From assembly GCA_946186925.1 (NCBI GenBank), contig CAMHPA010000010.1, positions 2,595-66,594 of the forward strand: a stretch of 64,000 nucleotides of DNA. Reading direction: 5' to 3'. The position numbers and the translations under genes were made by a program. Position 1 is the stretch's first letter. Each line of letters begins with the position of its first letter. Positions 10,233-15,633 of this stretch are shown here, piece after piece. The stretch is from an uncultured Bacteroidota bacterium (GTDB taxonomy: Bacteria; Bacteroidota; Bacteroidia; Bacteroidales; SZUA-534). The notes under the pieces are model-generated. The model made no database searches and was not told the origin of the DNA. It saw nothing but the letters and a program-made list of their open reading frames with translations.

Positions 10233-10275
10233 AAACGGCATTTTGATCGGCATCGCTGTATGCCGTTTTTTTTTG
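10233..10275 (+). terminator. rho-independent terminator
   Basis: The stem aaacggcat / atgccgttt is followed by a T9 tract. Confidence 0.75.
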
Positions 10276-10339: not shown

Positions 10340-10987
10340 ATGAACCATAGTATGGAATACAAACAATTCGTTTTCAATCCGATACAGGAAAACACCTACG
10401 TTGTTTACGACGAGACTGGCGAAGCGGTCATCATTGATGCGGGCAATTTCAATGAGCGTGAGAATGCGGCTCTGGACGATTTTGTCAGCGACAAAGGCTT
10501 GACTGTCAAGGCGGTACTGTGCACTCACTGCCACTGGGACCATATTTTCGGGCTCGACTGGGTGGCGCAGCAGTATCAGCCGCAAATCTACTGCCACGCC
10601 GCCGACCTGGCTTGGATTGAGAATTTCGGCCACATCTGCGAGAGTTACGGCTTCGGCGAGCGCGCAGTAGCCTATCCCACAAAGTTTTACAGCAATGGCG
10701 ACATTGTCAGTTTCGGCAAGTCGGAACTGAAAGTGTTGAGCACGCCTGGACACTCGCAGGGCGGTGTGGCGCTCTACAGCAAGGCCGATAATCTGCTTTT
10801 CAGCGGCGACACGCTGTTCTTCAACAGCATAGGCCGTGCCGACCTGCCTGGCGGCGACGAGCAGCAACTCATCGAATCGATTAAAAACCAACTGCTTACC
10901 CTGCCCGACGACACCGCCGTGCTGCCTGGCCACGGCTTGCAGACGTCAATCGGATTTGAACGCACCAACAACCCTTATCTGCAATAA
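10340..10987 (+). CDS. MBL-fold metallo-hydrolase (glyoxalase II-like)
   Basis: It carries the HxHxDH motif (THCHWDH), STPGHSQGG, and GDTLF...GRADLPGG. The start is ambiguous (10292, 10340 or 10352). Confidence 0.85.
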   Translation: MNHSMEYKQFVFNPIQENTYVVYDETGEAVIIDAGNFNERENAALDDFVSDKGLTVKAVLCTHCHWDHIFGLDWVAQQYQPQIYCHAADLAWIENFGHICESYGFGERAVAYPTKFYSNGDIVSFGKSELKVLSTPGHSQGGVALYSKADNLLFSGDTLFFNSIGRADLPGGDEQQLIESIKNQLLTLPDDTAVLPGHGLQTSIGFERTNNPYLQ

Positions 10988-10990
10988 ACT

Positions 10991-13900
10991 ATGGAACAGC
11001 ACTCGCAAAACCTTCTGACTGACAAAATGTTAGCCAACATCGGACTGATGACGGCCGAAGCGTCGCAGTTTGCCGACCGCAACTCGATGCTGCAATATGT
11101 GGTCAACACCGTGGCCGCGGGCTTCGACGCAACCGACGGTGTTTTTGTGTCGGTAGTTTACAAGGGCATCAGTTACACCAACGGGCTGGCGGCGGACGCT
11201 GCAGAGCGCATATCGGTGCCGATAGTGATTGTGGGCGAAGTGAAGGGCTCTGTCAATGTGTCGTGGCCAACAGCGCGCAATGTGAGCGATGCGGCTGACA
11301 ATCAGTATATTGAGTGCGTTGCCGACATTATCGCCACACAGGTGATGCGGCTCAAATATGCCGACATTAAAGTGCAGAACCGCGAGAGAATCAAAGAGTT
11401 GGACGCCATCAACTACACCACGCAGATTGTGAAGCACGGACTCCCCATCGACGAGACGCTGCAGAGCATCTGCAATATGCTGCCCCGCGCGTGGTTGCAC
11501 AACGACTGGGCTGCGGCGCGCATCAAGTTTCAGGACAAACAATACACGAGCCTGAATTTTATGGTGACGCAATGGGGTATGAATGAGCAGTTTGCAACCA
11601 TCGATAACAAAAAAGGGAGCATTGAGATTTACTATCTGCGCGATTTTGAGCAGAGCGGCGAGCCCGTCTTTCTGCCCGAAGAGCGCAACCTGCTTGCCAA
11701 CATTGCGCGGCTCATCACGGGCTACCTTAACAGTTTCAAAGGCAGCGAGATAATCTTGCAAAAGGCCGTCATCGACGTGCAGCAGCACCGCACCGACCAA
11801 CTGCGGCGCTCGCTTTCGAAAGAGCACAAGCCGCTTCAGCAGTACTTCAATCAACAAATGATGGACAAGTACGTCTATCTTGATATGATGAAGTACAAAA
11901 TCAAGCATATTCTCTTTGTATCAACACTTTACGACGCCTTCCTGCTCGAGAACGACGACACGTTTTTCGAGAAGTTTATGGGCGAAATCTACCAATACAG
12001 CCTTTTCTCGCTGCCGCGAATCACGGGCGTCTCGTCGGAAGAAGACGCGCTCGAGATTCTCGAAACCACGCCCATCGACCTTGTGATTCTAATGGTTGGC
12101 ATCGACCGCGAGTCGCCCATCGCCTTGAGCGCCAAAATAAAGGAAATGAACGACTCGATTCCCGTCTATCTGCTTATAAATAAAAAGGATGACGAGAAAT
12201 ACTTCAACAATCTGATACCCACCATCACATCGGTCGACAAAATGTTTGTGTGGACGGGCGACACGTCGATTATCTTCGCCATTGTCAAGTCGATAGAAGA
12301 CAGCGTGAACGTGGCCAACGACACCAAGGTGGGTCTGGTGCGCGTGATTCTGCTCATTGAAGACTCGCCGTCGTATTACTCTCGTTATCTGCAAATTCTG
12401 TACTCGATTGTGTTCGACCAAGTGCAGAAACTGCTGCCCGAAGTTGAGAAGAACGAACTGAATAAAATCACAAAAATTCGGTCGCGGCCGAAGATTCTGC
12501 ACGCGCGGAATTACGAAGAAGCCATCGCTATCTTCAACAAATACAAGGACTTTCTGCTGTGCGTGATTTCGGACGTTGAGTTCGACTGGGGCGGCAAGCC
12601 CGACAAGCAGGCGGGCCTGAAGTTTGTGAAATATATGCGCGAGCAGGTCTTCAGCGTGCCTGTGATTCTGCAATCGACTGAAGACGTGCAACTTGAGAAC
12701 GCATCGGAAAACAAGATTTTCTTCATCAACAAAAACAGCGCAACTCTGTTCGACGACCTGCGCCGCCACCTGATTAAGTATCTCGGCTACGGCGATTTTC
12801 TGTTCCGAACCAAGGACGGCAAGGACATTGGGGTGGCCCACTCGCTGCGTGAGTTTGAAATGCTCATCCACGACGTGCCGCAGGACTCGTTTGTGCGCCA
12901 CGCCATTAAGAATCAGTACTCTATCTGGCTTATGGCGCGCGGCGAAATCCAACTGGCGCGGACCATCAACGCTATGCGGTTGGAAGACCGAAACGACATT
13001 GAGCAGTCGCGGCAGGACGTGCTGAACGCTATCCGCGTCTATCGCGAGCAGAAGAAGAAAGGCAAGGTGCTCTCGTACGACGAGACTTCGACCGTTGACG
13101 AGCACAACATTGTGCGCTTTGCGGGCGGCACAATGGGCGGCAAGGGCCGCGGCCTGGCCTTCATCGACGTGCTCATCTACAACCTTGATTTGGGCGACCT
13201 GGCCAAGCGCATCAACCTGCTCACGCCGACAACGGTCATTATCGGCACCGACGAGTTTGATACTTTTATGGAACGTAACAAACTGTATGTCAAGGTTATC
13301 GACCCCGAAGTGTCGTATCAGCGCCTGCGCGAGATTTTCCACTACAGCAACCTGAGTCTGGAACTTGAGCGGCGCGTGCGCGATTTTGTGAACCACATCG
13401 ACAAACCGCTTGTGGTGCGCTCGTCGAGTACGTCGGAAGATTCTATCAATCAGCCGTTTGCGGGCGTTTTTGATACTTACATCGTGCCCAACGGCGAGAA
13501 CAAGGAAAAGACCTTCCAACTGGTTTGCGACGCCATCAAACTGGTCTATGCGTCAGTCTATTCCGACCAGGCGCGGGGCTATTTCAACGCCATCAACCAC
13601 AAGATTGAAGGCGAGAAAATGGCCGTTATTATTCAGGAACTTGTTGGAACTCAATTTGGTAACTACTATTATCCGCACATCAGCGGCGTGGCGCAGTCGT
13701 ACAATTTCTACCCCATTGCCGATATGAAGCCCGAAGAAGGTTACGCCGTAATTGCAATGGGATTAGGCAGTTACGTGGTCGACGGGTGGAAGGCTTACCG
13801 ATTCTCGCCGCGCTACCCGAAGGTGTCAATGTACACCACGCAGTCGCTGCTGCAGACCACGCAGACGCAGTTCTACGCGCTCGACCTGACCAACACCGAC

Positions 13901-14782
13901 CCCGATTTTCTGGCCGACGGCGAGTTGGCGGCCGTGAAAATGGTTGACATCTACGACGCCGAAGAGCACGGCGCACTGAAGCATCTGGCATCGGTTTATA
14001 ATGCTGATAATGACACCGTTAGGTCTGGAACCGACGGCTACGGGCCGCGAGTGCTGAATTTTGCTGATATTCTGCAATATAACTACTTCCCGCTGGCCGA
14101 AACCATCGACACCATTCTGGCCACCGTCCGCGACGCGTTCGGCTCGCCTGTCGAGATTGAGTACGCCGTGAACCTGACGCCTGGCCTTGACGGCAAACCA
14201 TCGTTCTATCTGCTTCAGATTAAGCCACTTGTGGGTGCAAACACCATCGAGACCGACTGCAACATTTTTGAGCAGAAAGAGCGGCTGTGGCTCTACACGC
14301 AGCAGAGTCTGGGCAACGGCACGCTGAATGACATCGAAGACGTGATTTACATCGACAACGAGAAGTTTAACAAGCTGGAAACCATTGAAATGGCCGAAGA
14401 AATCAACCGCCTGAACACAATGATGATTGAAGAAGGCCGCAAGTATATCTTGATTGGTCCTGGGCGTTGGGGCTCAAGCGACCGTTTTCTGGGCGTTCCC
14501 GTCGATTGGTCGCAGATTTCGAACGCGCGTGTGATTGTTGAAATCGGCCTGAACGACTATCCGCTCGACTTTTCGCTTGGCTCGCATTTCTTCCACAATG
14601 TCACGTCGATGAACATTGGCTATTTTGCTGTGCAGAACCACTCGGCAAAGAGTTTTATCCGTTGGGAAGTACTTGATAATCAGGAAACAATACACGCAAC
14701 AAAACATTTCCGCCATATCCGCTTCAACCACCCCGTCACCGTTGTGATGGACGGCAAAGAGAAGGTGGCAGGGATTTGCTGA
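10991..14782 (+). CDS. multidomain sensor protein: GAF-like N-terminus, two receiver-like domains, PEP/pyruvate-binding (PPDK_N ATP-grasp) domain
   Basis: REC2 has ILLIEDSP...LLCVISDVEF...PVILQS. The ATP-grasp part has GGTMGGKGRGLAFI and VVRSSSTSEDS. The C-terminal part contains LIGPGRWGSSDR. I see no GGxTxH swivel-His motif and no PEP-utilizer TIM-barrel segment. Confidence 0.75.
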   Translation: MEQHSQNLLTDKMLANIGLMTAEASQFADRNSMLQYVVNTVAAGFDATDGVFVSVVYKGISYTNGLAADAAERISVPIVIVGEVKGSVNVSWPTARNVSDAADNQYIECVADIIATQVMRLKYADIKVQNRERIKELDAINYTTQIVKHGLPIDETLQSICNMLPRAWLHNDWAAARIKFQDKQYTSLNFMVTQWGMNEQFATIDNKKGSIEIYYLRDFEQSGEPVFLPEERNLLANIARLITGYLNSFKGSEIILQKAVIDVQQHRTDQLRRSLSKEHKPLQQYFNQQMMDKYVYLDMMKYKIKHILFVSTLYDAFLLENDDTFFEKFMGEIYQYSLFSLPRITGVSSEEDALEILETTPIDLVILMVGIDRESPIALSAKIKEMNDSIPVYLLINKKDDEKYFNNLIPTITSVDKMFVWTGDTSIIFAIVKSIEDSVNVANDTKVGLVRVILLIEDSPSYYSRYLQILYSIVFDQVQKLLPEVEKNELNKITKIRSRPKILHARNYEEAIAIFNKYKDFLLCVISDVEFDWGGKPDKQAGLKFVKYMREQVFSVPVILQSTEDVQLENASENKIFFINKNSATLFDDLRRHLIKYLGYGDFLFRTKDGKDIGVAHSLREFEMLIHDVPQDSFVRHAIKNQYSIWLMARGEIQLARTINAMRLEDRNDIEQSRQDVLNAIRVYREQKKKGKVLSYDETSTVDEHNIVRFAGGTMGGKGRGLAFIDVLIYNLDLGDLAKRINLLTPTTVIIGTDEFDTFMERNKLYVKVIDPEVSYQRLREIFHYSNLSLELERRVRDFVNHIDKPLVVRSSSTSEDSINQPFAGVFDTYIVPNGENKEKTFQLVCDAIKLVYASVYSDQARGYFNAINHKIEGEKMAVIIQELVGTQFGNYYYPHISGVAQSYNFYPIADMKPEEGYAVIAMGLGSYVVDGWKAYRFSPRYPKVSMYTTQSLLQTTQTQFYALDLTNTDPDFLADGELAAVKMVDIYDAEEHGALKHLASVYNADNDTVRSGTDGYGPRVLNFADILQYNYFPLAETIDTILATVRDAFGSPVEIEYAVNLTPGLDGKPSFYLLQIKPLVGANTIETDCNIFEQKERLWLYTQQSLGNGTLNDIEDVIYIDNEKFNKLETIEMAEEINRLNTMMIEEGRKYILIGPGRWGSSDRFLGVPVDWSQISNARVIVEIGLNDYPLDFSLGSHFFHNVTSMNIGYFAVQNHSAKSFIRWEVLDNQETIHATKHFRHIRFNHPVTVVMDGKEKVAGIC

Positions 14783-14930
14783 AGAATTTGATTGCACTTT
14801 GCACGGACTTGCGCTCAAAAAAAGCAATCTAACAGTTAGTGTAGCACGCATTTTGCAGAAAACCGAAAAAAATTAATATTGCAATGCGTTTCTGGCAAGC
14901 GATATTTTAAAAACTTAAAAACGCATTTTT

Positions 14931-15581
14931 ATGGTATTTGTAGGATTATTCAGTCAGCACAAATTGATTCTTGAGAGCGTAACTGCTTATCTGTCAAATT
15001 ATTCTGACATCAAGGTGGTGATTGCCACCAGCGACAAGCCGACTCTGTTCGAGAAGATGAAGCAACACATTGTGCACGTGCTAGTTGTGAATATGTTCGA
15101 GCTTTCGACGGCCGAACTGAATTTTATCATCGACACAATGCTGAAATATCCGAAGTTGAAAATCTTGTTGCTATCGAATGCCAACCGTGACGATGTTATT
15201 CTGCGCTCGATAAAAGCCGGTGCCAAAGGTTACATCACCATCGATGCTACAGGCGGTGAGCTGGCGCAGGCCATTTTCTCGCTTCGTGCTGGCCACGACT
15301 ACTACAGCGACAGCATCACACAGCTGCTGCTTAACCGCTACATTTCTAGCAATTTAACCGATTCTCAAGCCGACGATGACGACGACCCGTTGAGCGCCCG
15401 TCAGATTGAGATTCTGAAACTTTGGGGCGACGGCTTCAGCAATCAGGAAATTGCCGACAAACTGTTTATCAGTGTTCGCACTGTTGAGACGCACAAAAAC
15501 CATATAATGCAGAAACTCAACCTGAAAAGCACCGTCGATTTGGTGAAATATGCTATTAAGAGCAATATTATCAAGTTGTAA
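14931..15581 (+). CDS. LuxR/NarL-family DNA-binding regulator with degenerate receiver domain
   Basis: The C-terminal HTH is LSARQIEILKLWGDGFSNQEIADKLFISVRTVETHKNHIMQKL. The receiver lacks the acidic pair (FSQH), the phospho-Asp (VVNMFE) and the conserved Lys (GYITID). Confidence 0.85.
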   Translation: MVFVGLFSQHKLILESVTAYLSNYSDIKVVIATSDKPTLFEKMKQHIVHVLVVNMFELSTAELNFIIDTMLKYPKLKILLLSNANRDDVILRSIKAGAKGYITIDATGGELAQAIFSLRAGHDYYSDSITQLLLNRYISSNLTDSQADDDDDPLSARQIEILKLWGDGFSNQEIADKLFISVRTVETHKNHIMQKLNLKSTVDLVKYAIKSNIIKL

Positions 15582-15611
15582 ATCTGGGTGTAATTTGTTG
15601 TGCGATTTGTA

Positions 15612-15633
15612 GAGACGTGGCGCGCCGCGTCTC
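15612..15633. terminator. GC-rich palindromic hairpin GAGACGTGGCGCGCCGCGTCTC between convergent genes
   Basis: It is a perfect outer stem gagacg/cgtctc with GC-rich inner pairing. The site lies 30 nt after the LuxR-gene stop and 16 nt after the dus-family stop. There is no T-tract. A near-identical copy is at 44386-44409. Confidence 0.45.

Follow-up and report, generated by a model that had tools for sequence, protein, structure and literature searches.

A receiver-ATP-grasp protein and an Asp-less LuxR-type regulator as a candidate signalling unit for glutamate dehydrogenase in Bacteroidales

The window analysed here is a stretch of 64,000 nucleotides (nt) from an uncultured Bacteroidota bacterium (Bacteroidales; SZUA-534), positions 2,595 to 66,594 of contig CAMHPA010000010.1 in assembly GCA_946186925.1. 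Three open reading frames (ORFs) on the same strand lie close together in it. A first reading, made from the sequence only, had placed 3 nt between the first and second and 148 nt between the second and third, and the ORF listing gives the same gaps. The second gene, called the big gene here, encodes a protein of 1263 amino acids (aa) with sensor, receiver, and ATP-grasp domains. The third encodes a LuxR-type regulator. These two genes and their connection with the gene for glutamate dehydrogenase (GDH), gdh, are the subject of this report. The three genes and the segments of the big protein are as follows (HMM, hidden Markov model; E, expectation value; PPDK, pyruvate phosphate dikinase).

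10340..10987, forward strand: metallo-beta-lactamase (MBL)-fold hydrolase, GloB/YcbL-like (ORF listing, Pfam Lactamase_B)
10991..14782, forward strand: big gene, 1263 aa, sensor / pseudo-receiver / receiver / PPDK_N ATP-grasp / His-domain (ORF listing, Pfam)
11021..11359, forward strand: putative degenerate copy of the sensor module, residues 11-123, hallmark motifs gone (module HMM)
11357..11755, forward strand: intact sensor module, residues 123-255, with KEL..IN, LP..W, G.IE..Y, and FL.EER (module HMM, 170.8 bits)
11897..12280, forward strand: pseudo-receiver (receiver 1), about residues 303-430, Met368 at the acceptor site (sub-threshold Response_reg and OKR_DC_1_N, alignment)
12338..12760, forward strand: receiver 2, about residues 450-590, with E457, D458, D528, S562, and K581 (alignment)
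12773..13060, forward strand: conserved linker, about residues 595-690, weakly similar to DUF5752 (PF19027, E 0.014, below the cut-off)
13133..14236, forward strand: PPDK_N ATP-grasp domain, residues 715-1082, nucleotide and Mg motifs intact (PF01326, E 1.7e-37)
14258..14779, forward strand: end domain of unmatched fold, about residues 1090-1263, GPGRWG..D..G.P..W ... D.S.G.H1199.FF.N (AlphaFold2, alignment)
14931..15581, forward strand: Asp-less LuxR/NarL-family regulator, 216 aa, pseudo-receiver plus GerE helix-turn-helix (HTH) (ORF listing, Pfam)

The regulator possesses a GerE domain (PF00196) at residues 152-208 with E 4e-21. The region in front of it matches Response_reg at 22.6 bits, which is below the cut-off. 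In the pocket of this receiver fold, S-Q stands in place of the acidic pair, Asn54 in place of the acceptor Asp, and Ile in place of the Lys. The sequence-only reading had called the protein phosphorylation-blind, and its receiver cannot be phosphorylated on Asp. The GerE HTH of the NarL/FixJ family is present while the acceptor Asp and the catalytic pocket are absent, and the protein is classed as an Asp-less (atypical) receiver regulator. NarL-family models of NCBIfam match it, CsgD among them, and the best, MctR, reaches 122 bits against a cut-off of 300. Twenty-five LuxR orthologues linked to a big gene were aligned. Nearly all of them have Asn, Ser, His, or Val where the acceptor Asp would be. 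The pocket region IKAGAKG(F/Y)L and the linker RNG(H/Y)DYY are conserved, and the HTH hardly varies. In the window's genus, the Lys and the acidic pair are gone as well.

The genes that surround homologues of the big gene can indicate what it works with. Five long homologues were looked up, and in four of these the big gene is followed by LuxR (weak receiver plus GerE) and then by a gene with an ELFV_dehydrog domain, that is, gdh. In the fifth, gdh is convergent. More distant gene orders were compared at 80 loci from a collection of species-representative genomes. In the closest group among these, with 53-63% identity over the C-terminal half, LuxR and then gdh are found 3' of the big gene unless the contig ends, and the spacing of the big gene and LuxR is -8 to +7 nt in most cases. 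A tree of 134 family proteins (FastTree with local SH-like supports, some long branches flagged) splits a 990-aa core group from a sensor-bearing group. The window's protein is placed in a clade of 24 rows (support 99). LuxR is adjacent in 19 of these rows, with gdh also present in 14 of the 19, and two of the five rows without LuxR are contig ends. The link between LuxR and the big protein that had been proposed from the window is thus a conserved and mostly translationally coupled synteny in its clade.

The window's genome has a single copy of the big gene, and its only gdh is on another contig, C47. Gene order indicates that the conserved third member is glutamate dehydrogenase and that it was relocated in this genome. 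Within the genus, all 16 genomes have the big gene and 15 have LuxR, the exception being a genome that is 82% complete. The distance between the two varies. They are about 0.1-0.2 kb apart in four species, separated by 2.6-3.6 kb of inserted DNA in three, 11 kb apart in one, and on separate contigs in four.

A 17-bp palindrome, TTACGT-N5-ACGTAA, precedes gdh. The form TTACGT(A/G)AAACACGTAA was identified in the spacer between LuxR and gdh at all 14 loci with the order big gene, LuxR, gdh, where it lies 84-162 nt before the gdh start codon. The window's genome has the box CTACGTAGTTCACGTAA at 13115-13129 of contig C47, 89 nt before its unlinked gdh. This genome of 3.3 Mb contains three exact TACGT-N5-ACGTA sites, one of which is the site at gdh and another of which is inside a tRNA gene. 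The box was found 86-97 nt before gdh, again unlinked, in all genus genomes examined and in G022 from a sister genus, and it is also present in G021, G031, and G035. Eleven relatives that lack the Asp-less LuxR do not have it, with a best score of at most 8.6 bits. Among the 29 relatives with a readable gdh upstream region, 18 possess both the box and the Asp-less LuxR, 11 possess neither, and none is discordant, although the box genomes are related to each other and represent about 4-5 independent lineages, so that this tally overstates the statistics. Canonical-looking LuxR matches in genomes without the box (G033, G035:C95, G041-G045) were set aside as ordinary Asp-containing response regulators.

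The spacer of the box varies within the genus while its half-sites are kept, as expected for a site that is bound by a protein. In 13 of 23 loci from several families, including all five genus members tested, the box is 37-38 nt upstream of a -7 element, TAnnTTT[GA]. By our own reading this would put its centre near -58 of gdh, a typical position for an activator. A gdh box that is correlated with LuxR, has a fixed distance from the promoter, and survives the unlinking of gdh is new here.

Other boxes were seen away from gdh. The window's genome (G000) has further intergenic sites with 0-1 mismatch to TACGT-N5-ACGTA at C37:7693, C87:3540, C19:13343, and C59:13596. By their N-terminal sequences, the genes 3' of these boxes are prephenate-dehydratase-like, indolepyruvate/2-oxoacid ferredoxin oxidoreductase-like, a PurF-like amidotransferase, and sodium:solute-symporter-like. 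They are possibly further members of a regulon, or the boxes are possibly chance matches. A strong box, TTACGTCAAACACGTAA (24.7 bits), is located at L060:4008-4024. It precedes a DHO_dh-family gene by 78 nt, and a MarR-like (HTH_27) gene and the big gene come next, in this order.

The homologues of the big protein number in the thousands and carry only the names 'PEP/pyruvate-binding domain-containing protein' (PEP, phosphoenolpyruvate) or 'hypothetical'. No paper that characterises this architecture was found in a literature search. PPDK_N is the sole Pfam call above threshold in the window's protein. Response_reg and OKR_DC_1_N are sub-threshold at residues 341-416, and no Pfam call was obtained for residues 1-300 or 1083-1263. 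The motifs quoted in the sequence-only reading are all in place: ILLIEDSP (453-460), CVISDVEF (524-531), PVILQST (557-563), GGKGRGLAF (716-724), and VVRSSSTSEDS (808-818). That reading had also described a GAF-like N-terminus followed by a second sensor-like segment. The second segment is an intact sensor module (residues 123-255), whereas a true GAF domain at the N-terminus was rejected, the GAF_2 match having E 0.18. An HMM was built from 140 modules and run with hmmsearch. Residues 11-123 align with it weakly and end to end (hmm positions 14-131, 5.2 bits, conditional E 7.8e-4), which is a better fit than GAF, and the N-terminus is best read as a decayed copy of the module.

Longer homologues of the big protein (1400-1550 aa) bear two to four copies of the sensor module. 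The module comprises 130 residues with the motifs KEL.C(L/I)(Y/N), LP..WQYPE, and EGPFL.EER. No Pfam model covers it, and the Pfam matches give only faint hints of GAF. Other proteins of related genomes (L131-L136) carry it too, either at the N-terminus or within the chain. These are small HisKA/HATPase kinases, hybrid kinases, a PAS protein, and a Crp-like regulator. Since the same module heads kinases, a PAS protein, and a Crp-like regulator, its predicted role is that of a general cytoplasmic sensor domain.

One degenerate and one apparently competent receiver had been recognised behind the sensor segments, and the alignment of 134 family members, which covers both paralogue groups, gives the same picture. 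In receiver 1, 130 of the 134 members carry Met where the acceptor would be (Met368 in the window's protein) and so lack the acceptor Asp there. Receiver 2 possesses the acidic pair, the acceptor Asp, the Ser/Thr, and the Lys of a receiver domain. E457 and D528 do not vary, and there is one exception each for S562 and K581. D458 is Asp in all members of the sensor group and in 33 of 48 members of the core group. Pfam misses receiver 2 because of an insertion after strand 1. Apart from unrelated neighbours, no histidine kinase gene is conserved beside the big gene in any locus type examined. In the linker that follows receiver 2, the weak DUF5752 match spans residues 629-690, and this family is precomputed on the homologues P0094 and P0112.

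The ATP-grasp domain resembles that of the PEP-utilising dikinases. In a Foldseek search it matched RPH (5hv1, E 5e-10), PEP synthase (2ols), HpeI (9goj), and PPDK (1kbl), with E from 5e-10 to 3e-8. GGKGRGLAF, RSSS.SEDS, E1055/E1057, and Q1076 are invariant. The NCBIfam dikinase models match only this part of the protein, with 19-54 bits against cut-offs of 500-1350. Pfam (E <= 0.1) gave no PEP-utilizers or PEP-utilizers_C match on the big protein, and Pfam at the same limit and NCBIfam gave no PEP/pyruvate TIM barrel (PF02896) or other substrate domain.

The end domain, which follows the ATP-grasp domain, has a length of about 170 residues and is conserved in both deep paralogue groups. Its invariant residues are GPGRWG, D, G.P..W, E, and D.S.G.H1199.FF.N, with His1199 invariant in 102 sequences from both groups. 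A catalytic or carrier role is most readily proposed for His1199. The AlphaFold2 model, made from the 102 aligned sequences, has a pLDDT of 88 and a pTM of 0.87. When this model was compared with PDB folds in Foldseek, the best match (E 7e-3, TM 0.26) was noise. The 102 sequences gave no Pfam match even at E 10, and the profile search of PDB gave none. By eye, ILIGPGRWG...SLGSHFFHN resembles ILV..t.P.w...GG.TSHAAI of PEP-utilizers, and a cryptic or diverged swivel domain was therefore a candidate. It was rejected, as the Pfam, PDB profile, Foldseek, and hhalign tests were all negative, the last giving a probability of 0.4% against 14 real swivel domains (PPDK, PEP synthase, PtsI-like, RPH-like). 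The sequence-only reading had found no phospho-histidine swivel and no PEP barrel and had stated that the protein cannot be a normal dikinase. Both statements hold, with no swivel or barrel detectable in the protein.

The end domain was detected in 1655 representative clusters at E <= 0.001 in a HMMER scan of 1.84 billion representative proteins. Each of the matches listed has a copy that reaches the C-terminus, and the placement after PPDK_N was seen for the query and its homologues. Three long fusion proteins, P0136, P0146, and P0170 (1523-1654 aa), have a second, internal copy at about residues 420-580 besides the C-terminal one. Each seems to join a short unit of ATP-grasp and end domain to a full-length member of the family.

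On balance, the big gene and LuxR probably encode the two proteins of a unit that signals carbon/nitrogen status and controls gdh. The LuxR dimer would bind TTACGT-N5-ACGTAA near -58 of gdh and would activate or otherwise tune its transcription. The big protein would set the activity of LuxR. In favour of this, there is no external phosphocarrier, the sole PEP-utilizers domain of the window's genome being in its ordinary 907-aa PPDK.

Several points weigh against such a unit. Besides the relatedness of the genomes that carry the box, the links are all comparative, and the binding of LuxR, the phosphorylation, and the regulation of gdh are predictions from sequence. The end domain could not be related to any phosphocarrier. 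In several species of the genus LuxR is 2.6-11 kb away or on another contig and has its own putative promoter, so that the coupling between big gene and LuxR is loose there. No TACGT-N5-ACGTA site is present in the window, even with one mismatch. An autoregulatory box was thus rejected, and there is no sign of autoregulation. In addition, tandem loci without LuxR such as L104 and L118 carry related boxes at gdh, TTAAGT-N5-ACTTAA, which differ from TTACGT-N5-ACGTAA by the same symmetric change in both half-sites. Several of these are located between gdh and the big gene and another before the second gdh (L104:1390-1460, 8509; L118:6773-6843, 13752). In these genomes the best LuxR-like proteins (L137 and L138) are regulators of the canonical type, and their HTH is nearly identical. 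Such boxes can therefore be served by another regulator whose HTH is similar, and this type of box is not exclusive to the Asp-less LuxR.

The family tree supplies a further point of this kind. In other sensor-bearing clades the big gene and a core paralogue form a tandem pair that often has gdh at its side, or gdh and LuxR are divergent from the big gene. Because two clades of the family, that of the tandem pairs and that of the 990-aa core form, adjoin gdh without any LuxR, the primary target of the enzyme may be GDH itself or a metabolite. It is possible, if rather doubtful, that the big protein acts directly on GDH or on a metabolite of the 2-oxoglutarate/glutamate node, as a receiver-gated ATP-dependent modifier or dikinase, and that LuxR is an independent gdh factor sharing the locus. 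The clades without LuxR agree with direct action: their tandem pairs of a long and a core form are flanked by one or two gdh genes, and in same-family genomes a 989-aa form lies directly upstream of a second type of gdh. The ATP-grasp and end-domain unit is also kept as one block in its 1655 clusters, whatever the N-terminal domains. The position of LuxR speaks against its independence, as in the window's clade it comes right after the big gene, the two frames overlapping or almost touching. An arrangement of this kind usually marks proteins that work together. Both genes are also kept in essentially every genome of the genus despite the unlinked gdh. In Bacteroides thetaiotaomicron, trans-acting gene(s) downstream of gdhA reportedly affect GDH activity, going by the title of a 1996 study by Baggio and Morrison (J Bacteriol 178:7212, cited in PMC4539542), and the connection is taken as a lead only. 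Where same-family genomes are readable, the 989-aa homologue is upstream of gdh, whereas that title speaks of downstream.

If the big protein and LuxR do act as one signalling unit, the preferred mechanism, which is speculative, would begin with the sensor module. Binding of a metabolite to this module, together with phosphorylation of Asp528, would gate the ATP-grasp domain. This domain could spend ATP on loading either Asp528 itself or His1199 of the end domain. Whichever state results, loaded or unloaded, might then be passed to the pseudo-receiver of LuxR, either by phosphotransfer to a residue other than Asp or by contact between receivers. A more specific proposal, which is unlikely, is that PPDK_N and the end domain with His1199 make up a kinase independent of any histidine kinase. 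It would phosphorylate the protein's own Asp528 and then control the Asp-less LuxR, and perhaps GDH. The route to the phosphorylated Asp528 could be the acyl-phosphate chemistry typical of ATP-grasp enzymes, or could lead through His1199.

The ATP-grasp enzyme might instead make a small phosphorylated or adenylylated product, which the pseudo-receiver of LuxR would sense as a ligand, like some Asp-less LuxR-type regulators. The characterised PPDK_N enzymes (PEP synthase, PPDK, RPH, PigC, and HpeI) all end by phosphorylating a small molecule, and the conserved pocket region and linker of the LuxR pseudo-receiver would suit a ligand. For the binding of a substrate, however, the big protein has no domain like the PEP barrel or the RIF-binding domain, and no biosynthetic or transport genes are conserved near the big gene in the five long-homologue loci. 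A small-molecule signal of this sort is quite improbable.

The two-protein unit can be compared with systems that are already known. The big protein shares the GGKG and RSS..ED motifs and the Mg ligands of the ATP-grasp domain, and thus the PPDK_N domain itself, with PEP synthase, PPDK, RPH, PigC/RedH, and the two-subunit HpeI/HpeH. It differs from the PEP-utilising dikinases in having no PF00391 swivel (GG.TSH), no PEP/pyruvate barrel, and no substrate domain, with a 170-residue domain of unmatched fold in their place. Sensor modules and two receivers also precede its ATP-grasp domain. Response regulators of the PleD type have an enzymatic output and a tandem of pseudo-receiver and receiver. 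The big protein likewise has a pseudo-receiver and a competent receiver N-terminal to an enzyme domain, but its output is an ATP-grasp domain and not GGDEF, it has N-terminal sensor modules as well, and there is no histidine kinase nearby.

Regulators with Asp-less or atypical receivers include VpsT/CsgD and BldM-WhiI of the NarL/FixJ family, the AmiR-AmiC pair, and the nitrogen regulator GlnR of actinobacteria. The window's LuxR resembles them in having a GerE HTH behind a receiver fold without the acceptor Asp, and it probably controls a nitrogen-assimilation gene. To our knowledge, no described Asp-less regulator has a receiver-ATP-grasp enzyme as its partner, whereas the window's LuxR has a conserved one.

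In Mycobacterium tuberculosis, VadK (Rv1127c) is a truncated PPDK that serves as a regulatory autophosphorylating kinase and needs ATP and Mg (PMC13400623). It is similar to the big protein in being derived from a dikinase without the PEP/pyruvate domain and, as proposed for the big protein, in regulating central metabolism. VadK retains the phosphohistidine domain of canonical type, with His422, and lacks sensors and receivers, whereas the end domain of the big protein is not a swivel. The combination of ATP-binding and canonical phosphohistidine domains that marks VadK is not present in the big protein.

A regulator of gdh would be of interest in these bacteria. According to a 2026 study of the rumen, many rumen bacteria are without the classical systems of nitrogen regulation, and similar reports for Bacteroidetes are cited there (PMC13196213). 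The enterobacterial PII/NtrBC/GlnE system is lacking in Bacteroidota and in many rumen and gut anaerobes. The control of their ammonia assimilation is an acknowledged gap, and GDH is the main and most highly expressed assimilation enzyme there (PMC13196213). The big-protein family is a candidate regulator of gdh that is very large, unstudied, and tied to gdh across clades. In the clade coupled to LuxR there is a defined 17-bp box at a fixed promoter position, which tracks the Asp-less LuxR even where gdh is unlinked. The mechanism is a puzzle, as a dikinase-type ATP-grasp domain is joined with a domain of unmatched fold and a competent receiver is paired with an Asp-less partner. If the ATP-grasp domain is a self-phosphorylating kinase, receiver-type regulators could be driven by a third route, next to histidine kinases and Ser/Thr kinases. 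A nitrogen-assimilation regulator, of which none is known in Bacteroidota, would then be supplied as well.

The MBL gene does not appear to belong to this unit. Its product matches Pfam Lactamase_B with E 1.4e-34. In NCBIfam it reaches 93.3 bits with GSH_gloB (TIGR03413) against a cut-off of 200.8, and so only the general Lactamase_B fold can be assigned. Homologues align from residue 4-5, and the true start may be at 10352. The sequence-only reading had treated the three genes as one compact module. The big gene/LuxR neighbourhood is indeed conserved in the window's clade, but the MBL gene is not part of it. It is highly improbable that MBL, big protein, and LuxR make up one functional module. 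The 3-nt gap between MBL and big gene, the terminator hairpin before MBL, and the adjacency in all genus (g1) genomes examined and in G022 would agree with such a module. The distribution of the MBL gene led to its rejection as a partner. Its orthologue is near-universal, being single-copy in 39 of 41 related genomes of the order, with genomes lacking the big gene included, and outside the genus and G022 it is on other contigs. At the more distant loci it is within 9 kb of the big gene in 0 of 80. On these grounds the MBL gene is an unrelated housekeeping neighbour, which in this lineage shares a predicted transcript with the big gene.

Three further features of the window bear on transcription.

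10234-10274: hairpin (AACGGCAT...ATGCCGTT) and T-run after the upstream thioredoxin-like gene, likely terminator (read from the sequence)
14852..14881, forward strand: probable own promoter of LuxR, TTTG, 18 nt, TAATATTG (block kept upstream of LuxR in the genus)
15609..15631, no strand assigned: GC-rich hairpin GAGACGTGGCGCGCCGCGTCTC between the convergent LuxR and dus genes (read from the sequence)

With a terminator after the thioredoxin-like gene, the transcript probably starts before the MBL gene. The hairpin at 10234-10274 likely sets the start of the MBL/big-gene transcription unit, and the two genes are probably co-transcribed in the window's genus. The hairpin at 15609..15631 is a probable bidirectional terminator for LuxR and dus. 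The block of TTTG, 18 nt, and TAATATTG is kept before LuxR in most of the genus members aligned. The TAATATTG block also stays with LuxR in the three species where 2.6-3.6 kb of foreign DNA splits LuxR from the big gene. It is probably the promoter of LuxR itself, and its fit to the Bacteroidota -33/-7 consensus is our own reading. A perfect 9-bp inverted repeat, AATGCGTTT / AAACGCATT, is found at 14883-14891 / 14919-14927, just 5' of the LuxR start codon. It was considered as a LuxR operator and was dropped, as it is not conserved in G009, G005, and G012.

The gap between the big gene and LuxR is a hot spot for insertions in the genus, the extra DNA in the three species being at L033-L035. 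In G003 (L003:5455-6154), just downstream of the big gene, there are an ORF of 55 aa and a GNAT-like ORF of 175 aa, which together resemble a toxin-antitoxin pair.

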